Source: a virus. From it: a stretch of DNA of 64,000 nt. A model generated the notes under the pieces. The model was given only the letters and a program-made list of their open reading frames with translations, was not told where the DNA came from and did no database searches. The stretch covers positions 280,770 to 344,769 of IMG/VR virus record IMGVR_UViG_3300024252_000004. One strand, given 5' to 3'. The position numbers were made by a program, and so were the translations under genes. Positions within the stretch are counted from its first letter, which is position 1. Every line of letters starts with the position of its first letter. This document shows, piece by piece, positions 2,556 through 63,534 of this stretch.

Positions 2556-2646
2556 AGGACTGTAGCTCAGTTTTTGGTTAGAGCGCTCGCCTGATAAGTG
2601 AGAGGCCACTTGGTATACGTTGGTTCAAATCCAACCAGTCCTACCA
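2556..2646 (+). tRNA. tRNA-Ile(GAT)-like with 16-nt variable region (11-nt insertion)
   Basis: acceptor AGGACTG/CAGTCCT, D arm GCTC..GAGC, anticodon stem CTCGC/GTGAG loop CTGATAA; body matches bacterial tRNA-Ile(GAT) except ACTTGGTATAC inserted before T stem GTTGG/CCAAC. Confidence 0.55.
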
Positions 2647-3107: not shown

Positions 3108-3304
3108 TGGATTTGTGGCTACATCTGATGGAATGCAGTTACCCGGAGGGTTGCACTTGCGGCACCTCCGCATACAATGCTTTGGCAGAAAAAGTTGCTG
3201 AGCAGCAGTCTCTTATGAGAGAAGCTGCCAAAGCCTTGTCTGACTGGAACAACGGACAAGGGGTGGATGAAGATTTGGAGCTAATAAAGAAGCTTCGAAG
3301 TTAA
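3107..3304 (+). CDS. hypothetical protein
   Basis: 65-aa ORF. Confidence 0.35.
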   Translation: MDLWLHLMECSYPEGCTCGTSAYNALAEKVAEQQSLMREAAKALSDWNNGQGVDEDLELIKKLRS

Positions 3305-6732: not shown

Positions 6733-7125
6733 ATGAGCGAGAAAACACTTAAGCCTATTGAACCTATTGATGATATGGTTATGACCATTATCGCTGACCT
6801 TAAGGAACTTGATTGTGTTACAGAGGTAATGGAATCTGGGTGGGAGGTTGGTTATAGGATTCAAGGAACGCCTTTGACTCTTATGGTGGCTCACGATGAC
6901 ATCAAGCCAACATTTCTATTTGTGAGAACAGAAATCTCAGAGGATCTTTTTAACTCATTTTGGGTTGATGACATGAATACAAAAGACCCAAACAAGTTGA
7001 GCCTTTATGTTCCAGTTCGCAAGCTATTCGATTTGGTAGATTTGCCAGAAGAAATGATTGAGTTTTTGGCGGTCAGGATTTCAATGTTTGTTGATGGAGA
7101 TATCTCCGAGCAGCAAGACTTTTAG
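6733..7125 (+). CDS. hypothetical acidic protein
   Basis: ATG 6733 just after PMM stop; same frame open from 6367, alternative start 6586. Confidence 0.4.
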   Translation: MSEKTLKPIEPIDDMVMTIIADLKELDCVTEVMESGWEVGYRIQGTPLTLMVAHDDIKPTFLFVRTEISEDLFNSFWVDDMNTKDPNKLSLYVPVRKLFDLVDLPEEMIEFLAVRISMFVDGDISEQQDF

Positions 7126-7406
7126 TCCTCGTCTTTATCTTCTTTCTTTTCTTTTGGAGCTTCGCCACCAAAGAGCTTTTCCATAAGCTCAGCAAAGTCG
7201 GAGGCATCCTCTGCTTCTTCTGGCATTTCTTCGCCATGACTATGTTCACATATATCAAGCGTAGGCTCATCGGGCATAGGAGATAGTCCCAAAGCAGATG
7301 CAATTTCTGCTGGATCTACTCCTTCTAAAATCAAAATCTCTTGAGCCTCTTTTTTGAAATTAAGGCTGTAGAGGTTTCTGCTTAAACTTACAAGTTTAGT
7401 GTACAT
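7122..7406 (-). CDS. hypothetical protein with acidic Lys/Glu/Asp tail
   Basis: start taken at MYTKLVSL (AGGAGTG 7 nt upstream on minus strand); longer ORF to 7538 overlaps the RF gene start and is likely spurious. Confidence 0.4.
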   Translation of the reverse strand: MYTKLVSLSRNLYSLNFKKEAQEILILEGVDPAEIASALGLSPMPDEPTLDICEHSHGEEMPEEAEDASDFAELMEKLFGGEAPKEKKEDKDED

Positions 7407-7457
7407 AGTACTGTCACTCCTACTAAGATTAAGTATAATAGTAGGACTGGAGGTTCT

Positions 7458-8146
7458 AATGAATTCGATCATATTGGAAATTAAAGCTGCCGAAGGCGGC
7501 ACAGATGCAAAGCTCCTTGTTGATGAACAGTTGGCCATTTATAGGAGATACTGTTCTCGGAGGTCTCTTTGAGTTAGCTCTCTTAGATTCCAGAAGCGGT
7601 TTTATCAGATGCAGAGTCAGCGGCAAAAACGTCAAAAAACATTTTAGGCATGAGCCTGGAGGCCACAGATGGCAAAGGGTTCCTCCGACAGAGAGACGAG
7701 GAAGGGTTCATACTTCTACGATCACTGTCGCTGTCCTACCGGAAGTAACTGAATCTGAAGTTAAGATTAGCGAAAAAGATTTAGAATGGAAAGCCTTTAG
7801 GGGTTCTGGTCCCGGCGGTCAGCATAGAAACAAAACTGATTCTGCTGTGTCGCTTCACCATAAGCCTACTGGAATCAAGATCCGTTCTGAATCTCAAAAG
7901 AGTCAGAAGCAGAATAAGGACACCGCTCTTGCAATATTGAGAGCGAGGTTGCATTCTGAGCAGAGAGAGTCTCAGTCTTTGCGACGCAGTAATATGAGGA
8001 AGAGCCAAGTGGGCTCAGGTATGCGCGCCGACAAAATCAGGACGATCAGGTTGCAGGACGGACAAGTTACGGATCACAACACTGGAAAAAGAATCTCTGC
8101 GAAAAAATATTTGCGCGGAGACTTGGAAGGTCTATTTGAAAAGTAA
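7458..8146 (+). CDS. class I peptide chain release factor, RF1-like (PxT = PPT), lacking domain 1; needs +1 frameshift at 7570 and has an additional +1 frame break at 7499/7501
   Basis: SD GGAGG + ATG 7458; MNSIILEIKAAEGG (frame 0) / TDAKLLVDEQLAIYRRYCSRRSL (frame +1, stops at UGA 7570) / ELALLDSRSGF..GGHRWQRVPPTERRGRVHTS..SGPGGQHRNKTDSA..DKIRTIRLQDGQVTDH (frame +2) align contiguously to RF1. Confidence 0.75.
7559..7573 (+). other. prfB-type programmed +1 ribosomal frameshift site
   Basis: GGAGG-UCU-CUU-UGA-G: SD-like element 3 nt upstream of CUU UGA, same architecture and spacing as E. coli prfB AGGGGG-UAU-CUU-UGA-C. Confidence 0.7.
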
Positions 8147-8336
8147 AGAAGCGATTGCAAAAGTGATGTTTTGGAGAATCGTAATTTCGATTCCGTTAAG
8201 CACGATAGTTACATATTTGTATTACGGTCAACTCTTCAAGGCTATTGGGTTTGTCATCTTGATGAACGTAATGATGACGGCGGCACACTTCGCTTTTGAA
8301 AAGGTTTGGCCTAAGATTTGGAGGAAGCTTGAGTAG
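8136..8336 (+). CDS. small membrane protein
   Basis: 66-aa ORF with two hydrophobic helices. Confidence 0.4.
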   Translation: MKSKEAIAKVMFWRIVISIPLSTIVTYLYYGQLFKAIGFVILMNVMMTAAHFAFEKVWPKIWRKLE

Positions 8337-8434
8337 AAAAGAACACTGCCGGGTTTATTGATCCTGAAATTGCCATCAGACTTGGGGCCAATCGTCAAGG
8401 TTTTGGCGGGAACTGATAAAGTTTAGAGCAAAAT

Positions 8435-8463
8435 TTGCTAAATTTCTCGCAAGATGGTATATA
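8435..8463 (+). promoter_or_regulatory. sigma70-like promoter, family copy 2
   Basis: TTGCTA-N17(AATTTCTCGCAAGATGG)-TATATA; tRNA 8525 follows 62 nt downstream. Confidence 0.6.
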
Positions 8464-8524
8464 TGATTCACGGGATCGAAACGTGCCGACGTAGTTTGGA
8501 TGCCATCTTCGAAAAACAAAATAA

Positions 8525-8617
8525 TGCGGGGTCGACTAGTCTGGCCCATGTCACCAGTCTCATAAGCTGGCTCTGAGTATACCTCAATCGTTGGTTCAAA
8601 TCCAACCCCCGCACCCA
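8525..8617 (+). tRNA. tRNA-like, anticodon CAT on class-II scaffold (19-nt variable arm), CCA encoded
   Basis: acceptor TGCGGGG/CCCCGCA perfect, D stem GAC/GTC, anticodon stem CCAGT/GCTGG loop CTCATAA, variable arm hairpin TGAG-TATAC-CTCA, T arm identical to tRNA 2556. Confidence 0.5.
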
Positions 8618-8629
8618 TAATAGGAAACA

Positions 8630-8866
8630 ATGAGCATCTATAGAGTTCATCACATAGATCTTTTGAATGTTCTGACTTATCTTTCTGCTTTTGATAATAA
8701 TGTACTTGAAAAAATACATTGTGATGGAGAGCAGGGAAGAGTAGTAATCTTTGTAGATCCTAAAGAAATACCCAAAAAAGATCTTGATCTTATTTTGGAT
8801 TGCAATTGCGAAGTGGACGAGGAAGGCTTTTTCATCCTTAAACCCACGATCATTATTGCAAAATAG
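8630..8866 (+). CDS. hypothetical protein
   Basis: 78-aa ORF. Confidence 0.4.
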   Translation: MSIYRVHHIDLLNVLTYLSAFDNNVLEKIHCDGEQGRVVIFVDPKEIPKKDLDLILDCNCEVDEEGFFILKPTIIIAK

Positions 8867-8883
8867 TTATGTTGTTGGTACGT

Positions 8884-8959
8884 GGGGACATGGTGAAACT
8901 GGATATCATGTTAGCCTTCTAAGCTTAAGTTCGGGGTTCGAGTCCCTGTGTCCCTGCCA
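8884..8959 (+). tRNA. tRNA-like, anticodon arm non-canonical (possible pseudo-tRNA)
   Basis: good acceptor GGGGACA/TGTCCCT, T arm CGGGG-TTCGAGT-CCCTG and CCA, but D and anticodon arms do not fold canonically (candidate loop CTTCTAA). Confidence 0.35.
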
Positions 8960-8980
8960 TCATCTTTTTGGAGTTTTCAA

Positions 8981-9253
8981 ATGAAGTTAGAAAAGACTCA
9001 ATTGAAAGCAGGATGGACTGTGGCTCTTAGGCCGGAAGATCCTACGAGATTCCGACTTATCAACCCTGATGGGTTTGGAGTAGCCTTAATTGGCCTCAAA
9101 GGCGAATGGTGGGGCACAAGCTATAATCTGTGGGATTCCCAAGGTGAAGAACATGGATATGAGGCGATAGACCCACCTGACATGCTGAGTGCGGTCAGAA
9201 ATTGTGCAGCACACTGTGGTGCTTTAAAATATGCGAAATGTGAGGAGTTGTAA
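8981..9253 (+). CDS. hypothetical protein
   Basis: ATG 8981 after tRNA end; ORF open from 8948. Confidence 0.4.
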   Translation: MKLEKTQLKAGWTVALRPEDPTRFRLINPDGFGVALIGLKGEWWGTSYNLWDSQGEEHGYEAIDPPDMLSAVRNCAAHCGALKYAKCEEL

Positions 9254-15288: not shown

Positions 15289-15704
15289 AAAGAGTTTATG
15301 TTGATATGGACGGAGTCCTTTGTGATTACGTTGCAAAATTTACAGAACTCCGTAACGAAGGAAACAAGTTTCCTCAGCAAAGCTTTGACTTCTTCAGAAG
15401 TATGAAGCCTATGCCATCGGCTCTTGCAGCTATGGGAATACTATCTAAACATTTCGATGTTTGGATTTTGACTAAGCCTTCCTACAAAAACCCTATGTCT
15501 TATACAGAAAAGAGACTTTGGGTTGAGGACCATCTTGGTCTGGATTGGTGTAAGAAGCTGATCCTTTGTCCTGATAAGGGATTGGTTATAGGAGATTATC
15601 TTATTGATGATTTCTTGTGGCCTGAATTTCAAGGTGAACAAGTTCATTTTGGTTCAAATAGATTTCCAAATTGGAGATCGGTAATAGATTATATGCGCCC
15701 GTGA
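15246..15704 (+). CDS. HAD-superfamily 5'(3')-deoxyribonucleotidase-like phosphatase
   Basis: VYVDMDGVLCD motif I (DxDxV); start may be TTG 15284 rather than ATG 15246. Confidence 0.55.
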   Translation: MGMATRSCSGRNKLKRVYVDMDGVLCDYVAKFTELRNEGNKFPQQSFDFFRSMKPMPSALAAMGILSKHFDVWILTKPSYKNPMSYTEKRLWVEDHLGLDWCKKLILCPDKGLVIGDYLIDDFLWPEFQGEQVHFGSNRFPNWRSVIDYMRP

Positions 15705-15785
15705 GCCGAGTGGTTGATGGCCCCAGACTCTTAATCTGGTACAGGTAGTGCTGCAACGTAGGTTCGAATCCTACCGGGCGTACCA
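15695..15785 (+). tRNA. class-II scaffold tRNA with anticodon CTT (Lys codon AAG), A73, CCA encoded
   Basis: acceptor GCGCCCG/CGGGCGT, D arm GCC-GAGTGGTTGAT-GGC, anticodon stem CCAGA/TCTGG loop CTCTTAA, 18-nt variable arm, T-loop TTCGAAT. Confidence 0.5.
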
Positions 15786-21690: not shown

Positions 21691-21768
21691 GGGGAATTAG
21701 CTCAATTGGCCAGAGCGGCAGATTCTAGACCTGCGACAGTGTGGGTTCGAGCCCCACATTCCCTACCA
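21691..21768 (+). tRNA. candidate amber-suppressor tRNA, anticodon CTA, tRNA-Trp-like body
   Basis: acceptor GGGGAAT/ATTCCCT, D arm GCTC-AATTGGCCA-GAGC, anticodon loop TTCTAGA on stem GCAGA/CCTGC (A-C mismatch at 31-39), 6-nt variable, T arm GTGGG-TTCGAGC-CCCAC, CCA encoded. Confidence 0.5.
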
Positions 21769-26794: not shown

Positions 26795-27016
26795 ATGTCA
26801 TATACAGAACAGGTTCGCAATCTACCAGAAGGAACCCTTTCAAAAGTTCTCCAGTCCGCTCACAGAATTGCTCGTGAGAAATTGGAAGCTGATTGGGGCC
26901 GGAAGGCAGAGTACGCAGCTTATAGAGTTCTGTACTATGATGAGTCTACTTGGCGTCAAGCTTTGGAAGACAATGATATAAGTCTAAGTGGTGGAACGGT
27001 AGACACGCAGCGCTGA
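26795..27016 (+). CDS. hypothetical protein
   Basis: ATG 26795 right after tRNA; ORF open from 26750. Confidence 0.4.
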   Translation: MSYTEQVRNLPEGTLSKVLQSAHRIAREKLEADWGRKAEYAAYRVLYYDESTWRQALEDNDISLSGGTVDTQR

Positions 27017-27064
27017 GTACGTTGTCCGGCAATCCGGGTGAAGGTTCAAATCCTTTCTTAGGCA
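26982..27064 (+). tRNA. tRNA-Leu(GAG), class II, only CC of CCA encoded
   Basis: acceptor GTCTAAG/CTTAGGC, anticodon stem CAGCG/CGTTG loop CTGAGTA, variable-arm hairpin CCGG-CAAT-CCGG, T-loop TTCAAAT. Confidence 0.6.
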
Positions 27065-27120
27065 CCTTAAGAAGTGTTAAGATGAGTTCAATTAATGTTA
27101 ATGAATGAGGAAGTTGTAAA

Positions 27121-27444: not shown

Positions 27445-27531
27445 GCCCAGGTGGCGGAATTGGTAGACGCGCCAGATTAAGGATCTGGTTCCTGAAACGG
27501 AGTGAAGGTTCGATCCCTTTCCTGGGCACCA
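27445..27531 (+). tRNA. tRNA-Leu, class II, anticodon read as AAG (unusual A34), CCA encoded
   Basis: Leu-type D arm TGGCGGAATTGGTAGACGC, anticodon stem CCAGA/TCTGG loop TTAAGGA, long variable arm, T-loop TTCGATC. Confidence 0.5.
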
Positions 27532-35223: not shown

Positions 35224-36138
35224 ATGCACCTAACGTCAATAGAACAAATTGACCGAGAGACATTAGAGAAGTTATTCCAAAGAGCGGATTACTGGAAAAG
35301 AATAAGAACACAAAAGCTTACAACAATTAAGCCGCTTCAGGGCCGCTTATTGACAAACCTATTTTATGAGCCATCGACAAGGACTGCATCATCGTTCTTT
35401 GCGGCGGCTTCTTTTCTTGGTGCCTCTGTTAATCAAATTACCAATGTAGCTTTCTCTTCTGTATCAAAAGGCGAAACGTTTGAAGACACCATTCTGACTC
35501 TCGCACAATACTCTGACGGAATTATCTTAAGGCACCCTGAGAAAGGGTACGCAGACTTAGCCGCCAGTGTGTCTCCTGTCCCCATCATTAATGCTGGGGA
35601 TGGCACAGGTGAACACCCTACTCAGACGCTACTTGATTTATATACAATATACTCAGAGCTTGGCAGGATAGATGACTTAGCTGTGGCAATGGTTGGTGAT
35701 CTTAAAAATGGGCGAACAGTTCATAGTTTAACTAAAGCGTTTGCAAAGTACGAAACAGAAACCGATCTTATTTTCATCTCTCCAGAAGAGCTTAAGATGC
35801 CCGAAGAGTATTGCGAAGTCTCTAAGGTTCTTGGGATACAAGAAACAGAAGATATGACTTCCGCAATGGAAAATAATCATATCGATGTACTGTATATGAC
35901 TCGCATACAAAAAGAGCGCTTCAATAATCAAGAAGATTATAAAAGGTATCATGGCTGCTATGAGCTTACGCCAAAAGAAATGAAGCTCATGCCGGACGAA
36001 TCATGTGTCCTTCATCCCTTGCCAAGGGTTGGGGAGATATCGTCAGAGGTTGATCACGACCCAAGGGCTGCATACTTTCGTCAAGTAAAGAATGGTATGT
36101 TCATGAGAATGGCGATATTAGAGGCATTAATTTCTTAA
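35224..36138 (+). CDS. pyrB: aspartate carbamoyltransferase catalytic subunit
   Basis: EPSTRT carbamoyl-phosphate motif, HPTQ, and VLHPLPRVGEI..FRQVKNGMFMRMAILEAL characteristic of ATCase rather than OTCase. Confidence 0.8.
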   Translation: MHLTSIEQIDRETLEKLFQRADYWKRIRTQKLTTIKPLQGRLLTNLFYEPSTRTASSFFAAASFLGASVNQITNVAFSSVSKGETFEDTILTLAQYSDGIILRHPEKGYADLAASVSPVPIINAGDGTGEHPTQTLLDLYTIYSELGRIDDLAVAMVGDLKNGRTVHSLTKAFAKYETETDLIFISPEELKMPEEYCEVSKVLGIQETEDMTSAMENNHIDVLYMTRIQKERFNNQEDYKRYHGCYELTPKEMKLMPDESCVLHPLPRVGEISSEVDHDPRAAYFRQVKNGMFMRMAILEALIS

Positions 36139-44443: not shown

Positions 44444-44846
44444 GGGGGCGTTTTGGATTCGACCGGGTAACAGATAGGAATAGTGCAAGCCGATCAAGGT
44501 AACTCAGATCGTTATAAGCGTTACAAAAAACAAACTAGTTGACGACTATTCATTCGTGTACGCAAACGCAGGCAGAGGCTTCGGCGCTCCTGTAGTAGCA
44601 TACGCCTAATTCCGATTTAGGCATGTGGACTCTGTGTTCCATATATCCAAACACAGATAAGTGGTTGAACGCACTGACATAAACATTGTTCAAAAATGGA
44701 GTAGCCCGAAAGGGAGGAGGCGTCTATCATTTGGCGTCAGGGGATAAAATGAATACTTTGCCTATTTAGAGAAATGGGATAAGCTTGTGAACGACTTGAA
44801 ATTGACGTTATGCGACACGAGGGTTCGACTCCCTCCGCCTCCACCA
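44444..44846 (+). ncRNA. ssrA: tmRNA (SsrA), standard one-piece
   Basis: 5' GGGGGCGTTTTGGATTCGACCGGG and 3' GAGGGTTCGACTCCCTCCGCCTCCACCA match tmRNA termini; acceptor GGGGGCG/CGCCTCC with G3-U70 and A73; tag frame GCA AAC GCA GGC AGA GGC TTC GGC GCT CCT GTA GTA GCA TAC GCC TAA (ANAGRGFGAPVVAYA). Confidence 0.85.
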
Positions 44847-53809: not shown

Positions 53810-55411
53810 ATGGGAAAAGTTGTAAAGATTGGACCTGAAGCAAGAAAAGAAATGCTTCAAGGTGTAGATATTTTAGCAAACGCCGTTAAGGCCACTCTTG
53901 GTCCGCGAGGAAGAAACGTTGCTATCGAAAGGGAATGGGGTCACCCGCTTATTACAAAAGATGGTGTGACTGTAGCTCGACAGATCAGATTGGATGATAG
54001 AATTCAGAACATGGGAGCACAGTTGGTGCGTTCGGTTGCAGCCGCAGCAAATAGCGCGGCAGGAGACGGGACAACAACTGCAACTGTTCTCGCTCAGGCA
54101 ATCTACTCCAAAGGCTTAGTTCTTGTAGACGAAGAGGGACTCAACCCTGTTCTTCTTAGACGCGGCATTGACCTTGCTGTGACAAAACTTTCAAGTAGAC
54201 TGAAGGGCTTATCTGCATCTGTAAGCGATGAAGCAAGCATGAGAAGTGTTGCTGTAATCTCTGCAAATAATGATAAGGTTCTCGGTGCCAAAATCGCAGA
54301 AGCTATCGCGGCAGTTGGTCAGCACGGAGTCATTTCCGTTGAGGAAGCGACTGGAAGATCAACTGAGGTGTTCTACTCGGAAGGTATCAAGCTCGATAAG
54401 GGATGGACCTCTGAGCATTTCGTGACAAATTCTGCAAGATTTACGGCAGAATTTGATGATTGTCTTATATTTCCTTATGATGGGGCGATTTCCAGCATCA
54501 CTGATGTAAGGGAAATTTTTGAGGAATTAGCCGAGCAATCCAAACCCGTTCTTTTGGTTGTAAAGCAGATCACAGATGAAGCTATTGCTCATCTTGTCTA
54601 CAACAAGATTCAGGGAAATATTAGAATCGCGGTAGTTCGTTCTCCTGGGTTTGGTGATTCGAGACGTGCATTCCTCGAAGACCTTGCCATTGTTTCTGGC
54701 GGAAAGATGTTCTGTGATAATGACGGAATCGGTCTTGACGGAGCAACAGTTGCTGATCTTGGGACCGCACGCAGGGTCATCGTAAGCCAGAACAGCACAA
54801 CTATAATTGAAGGTGGGGCAGATCCCAAAGATGTTGAGGCGAGAGCCATTCAGATTAAAGAGCAGCTTACTGCTGGTGGTCAACATGATTATCAGCTTGA
54901 GATTCTAAAAAGCAGACTTGCAAGAATCACTGGCTCGGCAGCGATTTTTAAGGTCGGCGGAAAATCTGAAGCTGAAATGAGAGAGAGAAAGGACAGAGTG
55001 GAAGATGCTATCAACGCTGTACGTTCAGCGCTTGAAGAAGGTGTAGTTCCCGGTGGTGGCTCCGCACTAATTCATGCCCTTCCAGTCCTTGACGAGATTG
55101 AGACAGATGGCCTTCTTCCTGAAGAGGTGGCCGGCATTGGAATTATCAGAGAGGCAGTTAAGGCCCCATTTTATCAGATTCTTGATAACGCCGGAGTCAC
55201 TGGTGCTGATGATTTTGTTGAGCAGATTTTGAATTCTGATGAGCCAAGCGGTTATGATGCTCTTAATCTTGAGTTTGTAACTAACATGTTAGACAATGGG
55301 ATTATGGATCCTTGTAAAGTTGTAAGAAGCTCTTTGGAGCATGCTGCATCAGCCAGTGGAACACTGCTGACGACAGAGGTTGCAATTTACGAAACTGAAA
55401 CGGAGAGATAA
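53810..55411 (+). CDS. groL: chaperonin GroEL (Cpn60)
   Basis: 533 aa; MGKVVKIGPEARKEMLQGVDILANAVKATLGPRGRNV..AGDGTTTATVLAQAI..full-length GroEL similarity. Confidence 0.9.
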   Translation: MGKVVKIGPEARKEMLQGVDILANAVKATLGPRGRNVAIEREWGHPLITKDGVTVARQIRLDDRIQNMGAQLVRSVAAAANSAAGDGTTTATVLAQAIYSKGLVLVDEEGLNPVLLRRGIDLAVTKLSSRLKGLSASVSDEASMRSVAVISANNDKVLGAKIAEAIAAVGQHGVISVEEATGRSTEVFYSEGIKLDKGWTSEHFVTNSARFTAEFDDCLIFPYDGAISSITDVREIFEELAEQSKPVLLVVKQITDEAIAHLVYNKIQGNIRIAVVRSPGFGDSRRAFLEDLAIVSGGKMFCDNDGIGLDGATVADLGTARRVIVSQNSTTIIEGGADPKDVEARAIQIKEQLTAGGQHDYQLEILKSRLARITGSAAIFKVGGKSEAEMRERKDRVEDAINAVRSALEEGVVPGGGSALIHALPVLDEIETDGLLPEEVAGIGIIREAVKAPFYQILDNAGVTGADDFVEQILNSDEPSGYDALNLEFVTNMLDNGIMDPCKVVRSSLEHAASASGTLLTTEVAIYETETER

Positions 55412-59014: not shown

Positions 59015-59087
59015 GGAGCATGTCCGTAGCTCTTAGTAGTTGCCTTGTATTCGCTTCGGTACTATTATCGCTCATGGAGGAATTTAC

Positions 59088-60098
59088 ATGTTGTTATCCG
59101 CAGATGTTGTAGTGGGGCTCGCTTGGGGCGATGAAGCAAAAGGAAAGATCACCTCAGCCTTGGCAGCTACAGGGCAGTACGACGCCGTGGCTCGCTGGGC
59201 CGGAGGCAATAACGCAGGCCATACGGTCTACGTCAATGGCGAAAAATACAAAACACACCTTGTTCCAAGCGGCGTATTCCACGGAATGCTTTCCATCGTT
59301 GGTCCCGGCTGTGTATTGCATCCAGAAGAATTTGAAAAAGAATTGGCTTACCTCGCAGGACACGGATTCGATACCTCTCTTGTGAAGGTATCTCCGAATT
59401 GCCACATTGTTCAAGACGAGCATATTGAGTTTGACAAGCAGAACCTTGCAAAGAAGCTTGGCACAACCTCAAAAGGTATTGCACCGAGTTACGCAGCTAA
59501 GGCGGCAAGAACAGGTCTTCTTGCCAAAGACTATTACGAAGGCAGTGACATCCTATGGGACGGTCAGCTTAGCGGTGTATTATTGTGTGAAGGAGCGCAG
59601 GGGGCTTGGTTAGATATTGATCACGGGAATTATCCCTATGTGACCTCAAGCATTACACTTGCCTATGGAGCTTGCAGTATAGGCTTCGCACCACAGCTCA
59701 TTAAGAGCATCTGGGGCGCTGCCAAAATTTATGACACAAGAAGCGGAGAAGATCCTATTTTTCCTGCGTCACTACTTGATGACCCTATGCTGTCAAAGGT
59801 TGGGGAAATTGGGGCCGAATATGGTGTGACCACAGGGCGCAGAAGAAAGGTAAATTGGCTTGATGTTGATATGCTGATTAAGTCTATCAATTTGACTGGA
59901 TGCACACACGTTGTTGTTAGCAAATGTGATGTATTGGAAGAGGCCGGAGTTTACAGGATGTATTGTAGAGGGATTCAGAACGAGCTTTCTGAGTTCGAAA
60001 GCATTACCGATATGACCGGAGTGCTGGAGACTCTTCTTAGAAAGAATTGTTCCCTTCTCAAGAGAGTGATCTTTTCCTCTTCACCGGAGAATATATGA
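59088..60098 (+). CDS. purA: adenylosuccinate synthetase
   Basis: SD GGAGG + ATG 59088; VVVGLAWGDEAKGK P-loop and GGNNAGHTV motif. Confidence 0.85.
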   Translation: MLLSADVVVGLAWGDEAKGKITSALAATGQYDAVARWAGGNNAGHTVYVNGEKYKTHLVPSGVFHGMLSIVGPGCVLHPEEFEKELAYLAGHGFDTSLVKVSPNCHIVQDEHIEFDKQNLAKKLGTTSKGIAPSYAAKAARTGLLAKDYYEGSDILWDGQLSGVLLCEGAQGAWLDIDHGNYPYVTSSITLAYGACSIGFAPQLIKSIWGAAKIYDTRSGEDPIFPASLLDDPMLSKVGEIGAEYGVTTGRRRKVNWLDVDMLIKSINLTGCTHVVVSKCDVLEEAGVYRMYCRGIQNELSEFESITDMTGVLETLLRKNCSLLKRVIFSSSPENI

Positions 60099-60931
60099 GT
60101 AAAAGAAGTATGTTGATATATCATGCCAATTGCCCTGACGGCTTTGGCGCGGCATATGCATTTTGGAAAAAATACGGATATGGTATTGATTACTGTGCAG
60201 TAAAGCATGGTGATCCGATACCGGATGATATTGACGACAGAGATATCTGGATAGTAGATTTCTGTTTTAAGTTTCCAGAAATGGATGAAGTGATTGAAAG
60301 AGCTAAGAGCGTGGTCGTTATCGATCACCACATTACGGCTATGGAATCGATGGAGGGCGTTACTCGTCCGAATCTTGAAACCATATTTAAAATGGATAAC
60401 TCAGGCGCGGTGTTGGCATGGAAATACCTTTTCCCTGACGAAGACGTTCCAAAGATTCTTCAGTACATTGAAGATAGAGATATTCATAAGTGGGAGCTAG
60501 AGGGTGCCGAAGCACTTTTGGCTAATCTTGATTCTAATGAAAAGAATCTTGAAATCTGGGATGATTTTGCTCAAGACATTGAGACCTCAAGAGGTTTGAT
60601 GAATCAGATTAAGGGCGGAAGAATTCTTCTTGATTACAAAAAGGAGATCAGTGATTCCATTAAGAGAGGCATGTATTACATGACTATCCGAGGAATTGAG
60701 TTCCCTGTCATTAACACCGCAGTGATATTCCGTGGAGACATCCTTTCGGAGATTGCTGATAGTACAGATTTTGGCGTAGCGGCTGCTTATAATTTTGACG
60801 GAAAGCATTATGTCTTCTCGTTAAGGTCGAGAGGCGAAGTCGATGTTGCTAAGATTGCGGAATCGTTCCCCGGTGGTGGCGGGCACAAAGGAGCCGCAGG
60901 GTTTTCGGTCCTTACTATGGAGGACCTTTAG
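60095..60931 (+). CDS. DHH/DHHA1 phosphoesterase (NrnA-like oligoribonuclease/pAp phosphatase family)
   Basis: ATG 60095 overlaps purA stop (ATGA); VVIDHH DHH motif and GGGGHKGAAG DHHA1 motif. Confidence 0.7.
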   Translation: MSKRSMLIYHANCPDGFGAAYAFWKKYGYGIDYCAVKHGDPIPDDIDDRDIWIVDFCFKFPEMDEVIERAKSVVVIDHHITAMESMEGVTRPNLETIFKMDNSGAVLAWKYLFPDEDVPKILQYIEDRDIHKWELEGAEALLANLDSNEKNLEIWDDFAQDIETSRGLMNQIKGGRILLDYKKEISDSIKRGMYYMTIRGIEFPVINTAVIFRGDILSEIADSTDFGVAAAYNFDGKHYVFSLRSRGEVDVAKIAESFPGGGGHKGAAGFSVLTMEDL

Positions 60932-62490: not shown

Positions 62491-63534
62491 ATGAAATTAA
62501 GAAGAGCTTTAGCATTTGATGACGTGCTTCTTGTTCCAAGAAAATCAGAGATACCTTCCAGGCTTGCCGTTGATCCTTCAGTAGACGTTGGTGGAATCAA
62601 ATTAGGCATTCCCCTTATTTCCTCTCCAATGGATACTGTAACAGAAGGACTTATGGCAAAACAACTTGGGCTGCTTGGCGGTCTGGGGATAATTCATAGG
62701 TACTGTTCTGTTAGTGAACAAATTGCTCACTTAAGAATACCAATTGCTGCCGGAGTATATGGAGGCTTTGCAATCGGAGTTGGAGCAGAAGCGGAAGAAA
62801 GATTCTCCATGATTCTGGAAGAATATGGCAGCAGCCTTGATGTTGTATGCATTGACATTGCGAATGGCCATAGCACGCTTATGGAGAGGACCATTAAGAA
62901 AGTTAGAGATATGGCTCCAGATATTTCAATCATGGCAGGAAATGTTGCTACCAGAGACGGATACAGGTTTCTCGCAGATCTCGGAGTAAATTCTGTCAGG
63001 GTAGGTATCGGCGGAGGAAGCATCTGCAAAACGCGAATTCAGACAGGGTTCGGCGTTCCTACATTTTCTTCTCTTCTTTGGGCCGCAGACGCTAAAGAGT
63101 CTGGTAAATACGAGGCGTCCATCATTGCAGATGGAGGCATTAGGCACCCCGGAGATTTAGCTAAAAGCATTGCGGCCGGCGCAGATGCTGTTATCTGTGG
63201 TAGCATCTTTGCTGGGAGCAAAGAAGCCCCTGGTGATGTAATCACATGGACAGATGGCATTGCCTATAAGAAATACAGGGGAATGGCATCGGAAGAGATT
63301 CAGGTAGAGAAGAGGGGCGGAATGAAGCCGGGAACCTGCGCAGAAGGAACGTCTACTCTTGTTAGATATGAAGGCTCCATGAAGAGAGTCACTGAGGAGT
63401 TTGAGGGCGGAATTAGGTCCGCCTTAACTTACAACGGTTCTTGGGATATTCCACATTTCCAGGTGACCGCAGAATTTATTGAGATTACAGATTCTGGATT
63501 AAGAGAGTCTCACTCTCACGGAACAAGGAAATAA
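62491..63534 (+). CDS. GMP reductase-like IMPDH/GMPR-family enzyme (no CBS domains)
   Basis: 347 aa, same length as GuaC; FDDVLLVP, IDIANGHS, catalytic loop GIGGGSICKTR, ADGGIRHPGDLAKSIAAGADAV. Confidence 0.7.
   Translation: MKLRRALAFDDVLLVPRKSEIPSRLAVDPSVDVGGIKLGIPLISSPMDTVTEGLMAKQLGLLGGLGIIHRYCSVSEQIAHLRIPIAAGVYGGFAIGVGAEAEERFSMILEEYGSSLDVVCIDIANGHSTLMERTIKKVRDMAPDISIMAGNVATRDGYRFLADLGVNSVRVGIGGGSICKTRIQTGFGVPTFSSLLWAADAKESGKYEASIIADGGIRHPGDLAKSIAAGADAVICGSIFAGSKEAPGDVITWTDGIAYKKYRGMASEEIQVEKRGGMKPGTCAEGTSTLVRYEGSMKRVTEEFEGGIRSALTYNGSWDIPHFQVTAEFIEITDSGLRESHSHGTRK

Follow-up and report, generated by a model that had tools for sequence, protein, structure and literature searches.

A probable prfB-type +1 frameshift site in an RF1-type release factor gene of a huge phage

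The frameshift in prfB, the gene for release factor 2 (RF2), is the textbook case of a gene that measures the activity of its own product at the ribosome, and RF2 is the factor that reads UGA. Craigen and Caskey reportedly described this autoregulatory +1 programmed ribosomal frameshift in 1986. To our knowledge, control of a release factor by a shifty stop is regarded as specific to RF2. Release factors contact RF3 and the L11 stalk through their domain 1. The prfB motif is made up of a Shine-Dalgarno (SD)-like element, a 3-nt spacer, CTT and TGA (PMC12421855). A survey of prfB in 8,164 genomes never found UAG as the sensor stop, and across about 12,750 surveyed bacterial genomes prfA showed no comparable frameshift. 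Similarly, Atkins et al. (2016) knew of no RF1 counterpart of a postulated early in-frame stop with readthrough.

Among viruses, the eRF1 gene of a giant amoeba virus is mentioned as needing both stop readthrough and a frameshift (PMC5009743). It resembles the gene described here in being a viral termination factor that would be made only through recoding at stops, but it is of the eukaryotic/archaeal type and unrelated in sequence, host and site. Code-switching phages (Borges et al., bioRxiv 10.1101/2021.08.26.457843; Al-Shayeb et al. 2020, PMC7162821) have a class I release factor among tRNAs and a suppressor-type tRNA in the genome, as does the phage analyzed here. In those phages RF1 is paired with TGA recoding and RF2 with TAG recoding, whereas our RF1-type gene stands beside a CUA (amber) tRNA in a region of standard code. 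A frameshift is mentioned in neither the Borges et al. preprint nor PMC7162821, and our literature searches returned no report of a frameshift in phage release factor genes.

Layout and identity of the release factor gene

The window, a 64-kb stretch of a phage genome of about 415 kb, contains a release factor gene laid out as two ORFs that lie one base apart in frame (Table 1). The frame-0 ORF encodes the first strand and helix alpha-5 of release factor domain 2 and matches the family profile with an E value of 2e-15. The +1-frame ORF supplies the remainder of domain 2, the GGQ domain 3 and domain 4, and joining the two gives a protein of 228 aa. Beyond the UGA, frame 0 runs for 24 codons up to a TAG and has no release factor homology. 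The first-pass annotation had read the gene in three frames, with a second frame break at 7499/7501 and a start at 7458. The sequence at that point is gaa ggc ggc aca gat gca (E G G T D A) and LEIKAAEGGTDAKLLVDEQ is a single frame, an extra base having been inserted in the earlier reading; the gene uses two frames, and its ATG is at 7459. Alignment to RF1 and RF2, which had been proposed as a check of the three-frame join, upheld a two-frame join in its place: residues 4-226 of the joined protein fall in one alignment with T. maritima RF1 that crosses the junction (178 bits; about 105 for RF2). The SD in front of the gene implies that the genes of this phage use SD-dependent initiation, on which the internal SD-like stimulator would also depend. 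The DNA upstream of the gene is occupied by an opposite-strand ORF.

Table 1. Features of the release factor locus and the amber-suppressor-type tRNA, in window coordinates
Feature	Position	Strand	Remarks
Promoter-like site CTGTCA, 17-nt spacer, TATAAT	7411..7439	+	Putative; from a consensus scan alone, 10/12 matches
7-bp inverted repeat CCTACTA / TAGTAGG	7419-7425 / 7439-7445		Flanks the -10 element; read from sequence
Shine-Dalgarno GGAGG	7449..7453	+	5 nt upstream of ATG 7459; read from sequence
Frame-0 ORF	7459..7572	+	37 codons and UGA 7570-7572; reads MNSIILEIKAAEGGTDAKLLVDEQLAIYRRYCSRRSL*
Internal SD-like stimulator GGAGG	7559..7563	+	3 nt 5' of the slippery codon; within Arg-Arg codons CGG AGG
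Shift site CUU UGA G	7567..7573	+	CTT 7567-7569, TGA 7570-7572, then G
+1-frame ORF	7571..8146	+	191 codons and UAA; reads ELALLD...GLFEK*
Pro-Pro-Thr tripeptide 'anticodon'	7682..7690	+	RF1-type PxT; within QRVPPTERRGRVHTS
GGQ motif (GGC GGT CAG)	7814..7822	+	Catalytic; invariant in both family alignments
tRNA with anticodon CUA	21691-21768		Amber-suppressor-type

Pfam assigned PCRF to residues 2-90 of the joined protein, spanning the junction, and RF-1 to residues 98-206. Profile scores were 242 bits for RF1, 159 for RF2 and 84 for RF-H, and the same ranking was obtained for each of ten diverse family members. The segment QRVPPTERRGRVHTS matches QRVP(V/A)TE..GRIHTS of T. maritima and E. coli RF1 column for column, and its decoding residues Q, P, T, H and T are all RF1-type, at RF1 spacing. 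The match to the RF1 model starts at position 105 of 347, indicating that domain 1 is absent. The original description of an RF1-like class I factor with GGQ and PxT motifs and no domain 1 is thus borne out by the Pfam domains, the profile scores and the start of the model match. An AlphaFold model of the joined protein had a pLDDT of 92, reaching about 97-98 near the junction at residues 37/38, and compared with ribosome-bound T. thermophilus RF1 it gave a TM score of 0.92 and an rmsd of 1.7 A.

The protein therefore shares with bacterial RF1 (prfA) the GGQ motif, the PxT-type tripeptide, the decoding loop and the fold of domains 2-4. It differs in lacking domain 1, in its PPT/PPN and GGxD variants, and in missing the RF1 equivalog cut-offs (242.5 versus 400 bits for NF001859; 239.7 versus 423 for TIGR00019), as 10 relatives did too. 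RF-H (PrfH) has the same architecture with an equivalent starting residue, and its model aligns from position 1; however, the RF-H score of 83.8 bits compares with a cut-off of 166.65, RF-H reached 48 bits in a PDB sequence search and the TM score was 0.69. Moreover, the window protein retains the residues that read stop codons, and RF-H pairs with the ligase RtcB, whereas the scanned neighbours comprised a phosphomannomutase and ORFs without a Pfam match, with no RtcB among them. By sequence comparison, the window gene is an RF1-descended class I release factor cut down to domains 2, 3 and 4. Its RF1-type decoding residues suggest that the product probably does not read UGA.

At the junction the DNA reads GGAGG-TCT-CTT-TGA-G, and a single occurrence of the pattern GGAGGNNNCTTTGA was counted in the window, where shuffles would give 0.05. 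The sequence and this count both agree with the prfB-site anatomy initially noted around the UGA. As in prfB, a purine SD-like run lies 3 nt 5' of a CUU Leu codon that abuts an in-frame stop, the functional bulk lies in the +1 frame behind a short frame-0 ORF, the protein is continuous across the frames, and the product is a class I release factor. The base that follows the stop is different: prfB typically has UGA followed by C, a weak termination context, but in the window gene UGA is followed by G. The phage gene further differs from prfB in its descent from RF1 instead of RF2, in being carried by phages instead of cells, and in the position of its site, at codon 38 of the joined protein inside domain 2 (motif RRG(L/F/W)), compared with codon ~26 in domain 1 of prfB. 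This different position, together with the missing domain 1 of the phage protein, points to an independent origin. No downstream RNA structure stimulator was found at the shift site (z = 0.18), and an Rfam scan of 7000-9000 returned tRNAs only. Slippage at CUU UGA, as well as its efficiency, is what we infer.

Conservation of the site and variation of its stop

The site was identical in 5 independent assemblies (JGI, ENA and Logan contigs), and the called ORF is present on at least 24 contigs, the longest of 414,644 bp; JGI samples 3300024258 and 3300024256 contain the phage. A shift at the same codon was found in 8/8 close IMG/VR loci, in the GenBank huge phage LR745208.1, and in 62 of the best 80 among at least 300 IMG/VR relatives. 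At least 64 distinct genes, on phage contigs and two short MAG contigs, are broken at this codon; identities lie at 44-77%, both halves are open and conserved, and every shifted relative has a homologous ORF of 34-38 codons ahead of the site. CUU stands directly before the stop in 63 of the 64 genes and UUU in the other, and prfB likewise has rare UUU variants. Among 62 unique tallied genes the P-site codon was CTT in 61 and TTT in 1, whereas CTT makes up 17% of Leu codons elsewhere in these genes (naive binomial 5e-46, which ignores shared ancestry). An SD-like 4-mer was found upstream, at the same spacing as in the window, in 49 of these 62 relatives, and C follows the stop in 50 of them. 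With CGGAGG(K)GT CTT TGA C as its consensus, the family comes close to the prfB logo, and the prfB-like stimulator set is retained over a GC range of 38% to 72%.

Uninterrupted versions of 220-231 aa account for about half of the closest proteins in a large protein collection, and the gate is, judging by these genes, dispensable in many lineages. Among the best 80 matches in 185,579 species genomes, the family type occurred only on three short MAG contigs; the other matches checked among those 80 (12 listed) were full-length, in-frame cellular RF1 with 38-44% identity. A DNA-level search of GenBank phages with 7000-9000 gave no match. Huge-phage GenBank genomes that have a relative contain one RF-like place each, and relatives often lie within tRNA arrays or adjoin tmRNA.

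All three stops occur at the sensor position. The 64 shifted genes use UGA in 48 cases, UAG in 13 and UAA in 3 (TGA 47, TAG 12 and TAA 3 in the tally of 62), which sets the family apart from prfB with its lack of UAG. Members that use UAG or UAA are scattered across the tree, and CUU UAG C is the site in the closest relative, which is 77% identical and shares the gene order. No decoding residue co-varied with the sensor stop in the 62 genes, and only residue 38, whose codon overlaps the stop, differed by sensor stop. The family tripeptide is PPT or PPN, compared with PET, PAT or PDT in sampled cellular RF1, and the tip of helix alpha-5 is GGxD in the family and GGxE in RF1; T and N variants of the tripeptide did not differ in their sensor stops. 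A link between an SPx tripeptide and TAG, suggested by 8 loci, was absent on 62 genes. A link between the sensor stop and a nearby suppressor tRNA was likewise set aside, the cases being too few: the window and L068 (CUA) and L062 (UCA).

Of the possible readings, a programmed frameshift is much the best supported by the comparison of relatives, and we consider it highly probable that a prfB-type +1 shift yields the RF1-type factor. A sequencing or assembly error of 1 nt in the TTT run, or decay to a pseudogene, could likewise place the frames one base apart, and gene callers annotate the downstream ORF only. However, the agreement of independent assemblies, the recurrence of the same slippery codon at the same codon position in 64 distinct genes at such divergence, and the open and conserved state of both halves effectively refute this explanation. 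Another proposal is that the +1-frame product is translated alone and that the 37-codon ORF is an unrelated leader peptide. Public annotation (P0001) does start a 213-aa 'peptide chain release factor 1' at a +1-frame ATG at 7505. This form, however, would miss the first strand and helix alpha-5 with its conserved GGxD/E tip, which are encoded in frame 0, and release factor homology is absent from MQSSLLMNSWPFIGDTVLGGLF, the residues that lead from ATG 7505 to the junction. In addition, the +1 frame upstream of the junction has no ATG, GTG or TTG in 27 of 64 relatives, and no ATG in 49 of 64. We consider two separate products very improbable.

Genome context and genetic code

The window carries 31 tRNAs, the amber-suppressor-type tRNA with anticodon CUA and a tmRNA. 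This sole suppressor-type tRNA in the window reads UAG, a codon that an RF1-type factor would also read. A profile search of the window's six-frame ORFs detected no second release factor gene. Code 11 fits the window, in which all three stops are used and TGA terminates 32 of 85 ORFs. Recoding of TGA or TAG in the window was considered and rejected: under code 11 the + strand is tiled with ORFs, and ORFs split in the same frame are not overrepresented for any stop. In 80 relatives, the 10-kb flanks likewise gave no sign of local recoding. A frameshift suspected in the adenylosuccinate synthetase gene (59040-60931) was dismissed, since on translation the gene ends at a normal stop and the ORF that follows is a separate one.

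These data also bear on the idea that this phage or its host uses UGA as a sense codon (code 4 or 25), the gene being simply read through. TGA does occur in frame in some family members (L002, L053, L081, L084 and L086-L088), and RF1 genes have been reported in TGA-recoded phages (Borges et al. preprint). In the window gene, however, release factor homology resumes in the +1 frame and not in frame 0, and the use of TGA as a terminator in ORFs that tile under code 11 likewise opposes a sense reading. We regard a sense UGA as refuted for the window gene, with a negligible chance overall.

What the shifty stop may sense

In the programmed frameshift proposed here, ribosomes would initiate at ATG 7459 and translate 37 codons, bringing tRNA-Leu on CUU into the P site and UGA into the A site, while the anti-SD of 16S rRNA pairs with GGAGG 3 nt upstream. 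Fast reading of UGA by a release factor would release a useless 37-residue peptide. When UGA is read slowly, the tRNA would slip onto UUU, GAG (Glu) would be decoded, and the 228-residue factor would be made. The site would thereby gate synthesis of the phage factor by the current termination capacity of the cell at the sensor codon. Because UGA is a codon for host RF2 but probably not for the phage product, the loop in the window would act as a cross-sensor and, unlike that of prfB, would not be self-limiting: low RF2 activity would lead to more of the phage RF1-type factor. We hold this logic tentatively and give it slightly less than an even chance. The benefit to the phage would probably be sustained termination at UAA and UAG late in a long infection, without harmful overproduction, acting beside its 31 tRNAs and tmRNA. 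Both this benefit and the factor that reads the sensor are what we infer.

Several observations argue against cross-sensing. The sensor stop flips among close relatives, which is hard to square with specific sensing of RF2 and leaves the regulatory reading weak. The flips between UGA, UAG and UAA indicate that host RF2 sensing is not conserved in the family. The initial suggestion that expression reports on host RF2 would accordingly hold for the window gene, whose sensor UGA is read by RF2 and whose predicted product has RF1-type residues, but not for the family, in which 13 UAG and 3 UAA sensors occur among 64. Furthermore, an RF1-type factor would be unable to relieve a shortage of UGA termination, yet 32/85 ORFs end in TGA, and it would compete with the CUA tRNA at UAG.

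True autoregulation would instead require a phage factor of broadened specificity, either omnipotent or including UGA, that reads the sensor stop and limits itself as RF2 does. An omnipotent product would allow all three stops to occur and to flip between close relatives without compensating changes in decoding; the prfB sensor is always a codon read by its product (98.6% TGA, 1.4% TAA, TAG never), the family departs from cellular RF1 at the decoding positions PPT/PPN and GGxD, and with a single RF-like place per GenBank huge-phage genome one factor may serve all stops. Set against this are the RF1-type decoding residues of the window protein, all retained at RF1 spacing, the far better scores of all tested members to RF1 than to RF2, the sensor stops shared by T and N tripeptide variants, and the toxicity reported for broadened RF2 variants (PMC7530605). 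We judge such self-limitation unlikely. A related view takes in the whole family, as minimal domain-1-less huge-phage factors gated by an early stop, either a CUU-stop +1 shift or, in other lineages such as L012, L013, L049 and L053, an in-frame stop at that codon or one close by, that the factor itself reads; this would involve broadened, possibly omnipotent specificity or, in UAG variants, an RF1 reading UAG. We see this as possible, though doubtful. If true, it would give prfB autoregulation its equivalent on the RF1 side, which has been looked for in cells without success. It would also cover a gate of the readthrough type, proposed for release factor genes ahead of their sequencing and unseen in bacteria (PMC5009743). 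Alternatively, the shifty stop might carry no regulatory information and serve as a constitutive attenuator that fixes a low yield or delays synthesis; any of the stops would then suffice, with UGA-C favoured only as the weakest terminator. The unconserved stop identity, the many lineages without an interruption and the dominance of UGA followed by C, the weakest termination context (PMC12421855), fit such a role. Nonetheless, yield could be cut far more simply by weakening the SD or by using a rarer start codon, the full prfB-like stimulator set has been kept at widely different GC contents, and wherever slippage competes with a release factor the yield must follow the concentration of that factor, which makes such information unavoidable. 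We find an attenuator quite improbable.

With the programmed frameshift as the preferred reading, a prfB-type device would have an independent origin in large phages, at a different position and in genes derived from RF1, with UGA, UAG or UAA as its sensor. The family would offer a natural series of variants on what a shifty stop senses, be it the product itself, a partner factor or total termination capacity. The protein, if it works, would be a minimal release factor without the RF3-interacting domain and a further element in the takeover of translation by huge phages, beside tRNAs, tmRNA and suppressor tRNAs. Standard gene callers shorten the genes of this family, here to the 213-aa ORF with a false N-terminus, leading to systematic mis-annotation. 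The ARFA program is said to correct the annotation of prfB for its frameshift, and a fix of the same kind would apply to the phage family.

Reading frames and product of the release factor gene

Direct reading of the bases gave two frames for the RF1-like release factor gene (7459-8146), joined at residues 37/38 into 228 residues. The first-pass annotation had claimed three, but its second frame switch, at 7499/7501, is absent: the bases gaa ggc ggc aca gat gca encode LEIKAAEGGTDAKLLVDEQ in a single frame. Its core observation, an RF1-like gene with a +1 shift site like that of prfB (the bacterial RF2 gene), was borne out, and the joined frames align to RF1. The GGAGGNNNCTTTGA pattern occurs once in the 64 kb, against 0.05 expected, and no notable RNA structure was found at the shift site.

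Positions 7399-8146 were identical in four independent contigs (JGI, ENA and Logan samples), and a fifth differed by one base, far from the shift site. This rules out a sequencing or assembly error at the site. A genuine error in this family is probably exemplified by relative L011, which has one further frame break in a G run (about 3200-3235; AGGHRF against AGGSSF in the nearly identical L009), most likely introduced in assembly.

Features of the release factor gene and of the RNA genes in the window
Feature	Position	Strand	Remarks
Promoter-like CTGTCA-17-TATAAT	7411-7439	+	5' of SD GGAGG and ATG 7459
SD GGAGG	7449-7453	+	upstream of ATG 7459
Frame-0 ORF	ATG 7459 to TGA 7570-7572	+	37 codons; translation MNSIILEIKAAEGGTDAKLLVDEQLAIYRRYCSRRSL
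Shift site	GGAGG 7559-7563; TGA 7570-7572	+	GGAGG TCT CTT TGA G
+1-frame ORF	7571-8146	+	translation ELALLDSRSGF...GGHRWQRVPPTERRGRVHTS...SGPGGQHRNKTDSAV...GLFEK; stop TAA
tRNA gene array	874-34845	+	31 tRNA genes
tRNA-Ile	2556-2646	+	91 nt, unusually long
tRNA-Met	8525-8617	+	93 nt, unusually long
tRNA-Lys	15695-15785	+	91 nt, unusually long
tRNA with anticodon CUA	21691-21768	+	amber-suppressor type, well-formed, CCA end encoded
tRNA-Leu(GAG)	26982-27066	+	
tRNA-Leu(AAG)	27445-27531	+	
tmRNA	44444-44846		tag DDYSFVYANAGRGFGAPVVAYA

The joined protein matched Pfam PCRF at residues 2-90, spanning the junction, and RF-1 at residues 98-206. NCBIfam scores were 242 bits for RF1, 159 for RF2, 84 for RF-H and 41 for ArfB. 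The alignment to the RF1 model covers positions 105-335 only, so the protein lacks domain 1 and does not reach the equivalog cut-off. Among solved structures, residues 4-226 aligned in a single stretch to T. maritima RF1 (178 bits), followed by E. coli RF1 (157 bits), RF2 (about 105) and PrfH (48). The decoding loop QRVPPTERRGRVHTS matches the RF1 loop QRVP(V/A)TE..GRIHTS in spacing and key residues. An AlphaFold model, built from an alignment of 50 uninterrupted homologues, had a mean pLDDT of 92 (about 97-98 near the junction), with a helix at 15-34 and a strand at 38-45. It superposed on ribosome-bound T. thermophilus RF1 with a TM of 0.92 and an rmsd of 1.7 A, against TM values of about 0.86 for RF2 complexes and 0.69 for PrfH. 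No second release factor gene was found in the window by family profile.

A divergent 94-aa acidic ORF occupies the minus strand at 7122-7406. In the gap that separates it from the release factor gene, a 7-bp inverted repeat (CCTACTA ... TAGTAGG, 7419-7445) flanks the -10-like TATAAT and may act as an operator or form a 5' hairpin.

Conservation of the shift site

The same shift, after 34-37 codons, was required in 8/8 close IMG/VR loci. The huge phage LR745208.1 (GenBank) likewise reads METIIVEIRAAEGGSDAKDLVNVYLGIYTKRGLRRGL* up to the site CGG AGG GGT CTT TGA C and then continues in +1. A profile scan yielded 300 relatives, and a +1 shift at the same codon was required in 62 of the best 80. 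In 62 unique shifted genes, the codon before the stop was CTT in 61 and TTT in one, although just 17% of their other Leu codons are CTT; the naive binomial of 5e-46 overstates the significance because the sequences are related, albeit at only 44-62% protein identity. An SD-like 4-mer lay within 12 nt upstream in 49/62, and the base after the stop was C in 50/62. The consensus, CGGAGG(K)GT CTT TGA C, contains the same elements that define the prfB site (PMC12421855). Its SD-like run is encoded by the Arg-Arg-Gly codons of RRG(L/F/W), a motif conserved in release factors, and the site probably arose there because these codons spell such a run.

From the upstream stop to the junction, the +1 frame lacked ATG in 49/64 genes and lacked ATG, GTG and TTG in 27/64. 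The downstream ORF is therefore generally unable to initiate alone, which excludes independent initiation as a general route. Taken together, these findings indicate that a phage RF1-derived gene without domain 1 has a conserved prfB-like +1 frameshift site. It is a variation of the known prfB mechanism, the same device in an RF1-derived gene.

RF1 scored above RF2, and RF2 above RF-H, in all ten diverse members compared. When 185,579 prokaryote species (one genome each) were searched, the shifted type appeared in just three of the best 80 matches, all on short MAG contigs and each with CTT TGA C; the other matches checked (12 listed) were full-length cellular RF1 of 38-44% identity, in frame for >100 codons further upstream. 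In a neighbour-joining tree, a rough tool here, the phage genes formed one group separate from cellular RF1. Its basal lineages were uninterrupted or had an in-frame TGA, and the CUU-stop site occupied one large clade, with TAG and TAA variants scattered at at least 10 places. Of the 120 nearest proteins in a large protein collection, roughly half were uninterrupted versions of 220-231 residues.

In other lineages of the family, in-frame premature stops, mostly followed by CTN, replace the shift. They fall at exactly codon 38 in L012 (TAG; 1501-2175) and in L013 and L049 (TGA), and about 10 codons later in L053, L081, L086 and L088 (TGA). L002, L084 and L091 have two each, L091 carrying TAG where the others have TGA. 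Because TGA terminates the genes adjoining these loci under code 11, the recoding looks gene-specific rather than genome-wide. L156, on a MAG contig, has a second independent shift site, GGGGG CAC CTT TGA C (about 1615-1640), some 9 codons beyond the usual shift position, where its clade-mates have an in-frame TGA. The tripeptide loop is gone from some shifted members: LR745208.1 (3113-3658; QRTSNGRIHSS), which retains GGQ, and L063 and L072 (HRWQE----KSGGRMQTS). These may have lost the usual stop-codon reading.

No programmed frameshift was seen in prfA, the RF1 gene, in ~12,750 genomes, and TAG occurred in 0/8,164 prfB motifs (Prince et al. 2025). Readthrough of an early in-frame stop was described as unknown for an RF2 gene, as was a UAG/RF1 counterpart (Atkins et al. 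2016, PMC5009743); a remark there notes a giant amoeba virus release factor gene that requires readthrough plus frameshifting. RF1 and RF2 are listed among huge-phage genes (Al-Shayeb et al., PMC7162821), and TAG-recoded phages carry RF2 and TGA-recoded phages RF1 (Borges et al., bioRxiv 10.1101/2021.08.26.457843); neither paper mentions a frameshift. We found no description of a phage release factor frameshift in literature that excluded most subscription journals, and an earlier one may exist.

What the sensor stop may sense

It had been proposed that an RF1-type gene whose gate is UGA, the codon specific to RF2, would report on host RF2; for the window gene, this follows from established codon specificities. 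The sensor stop, the premature stop at the shift site, was TGA in 47, TAG in 12 and TAA in 3 of the 62 unique shifted genes. The window gene's nearest relative (77% identity, same gene order) reads TCTCGGAGGGAT CTT TAG C; in the next (68%), which lacks a good SD, the site is CTT TGA C. No decoding-element column co-varied with stop type in the alignment, only residue 38 (whose codon overlaps the stop) differed with it, and T and N tripeptide variants had the same mix of sensor stops. Across the family, the site cannot have been conserved for reporting on host RF2.

For the window gene, we favor cross-sensing or general sensing of termination capacity. A pure RF1 role fits badly, because such a factor would be useless at the 32 ORFs in the window that end in TGA and would be in competition with the CUA tRNA that the phage itself encodes. 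Self-sensing, in which a phage factor of broadened specificity reads its own sensor stop, seems unlikely to us, and we give slightly less credence again to a fixed attenuator.

Genomic setting

Public pipelines annotate a 213-aa 'peptide chain release factor 1' that begins at ATG 7505; at least 24 contigs, the largest of 414,644 bp, contain this ORF. Relatives occur in 'uncultured phage' genomes of 485-735 kb and on viral contigs in IMG/VR as long as 619 kb. From these sizes, the carrier is a huge phage. With the standard code, plus-strand ORFs tile the window (stops TAA 40, TGA 32, TAG 13), with no excess of ORF splitting by any one stop type.

All 31 tRNA genes lie on the plus strand, and the slippery CUU could be decoded by the two phage tRNA-Leu species. 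The CUA tRNA is not close to the other tRNAs of the window and sits oddly next to an RF1-type factor in the same phage. Proteins identified in the window include phosphomannomutase and S49 peptidase, as well as aspartate carbamoyltransferase (35224-36138), Cpn60 chaperonin (53810-55411), a short adenylosuccinate synthetase (59040-60098) and IMP dehydrogenase/GMP reductase (62491-63534).
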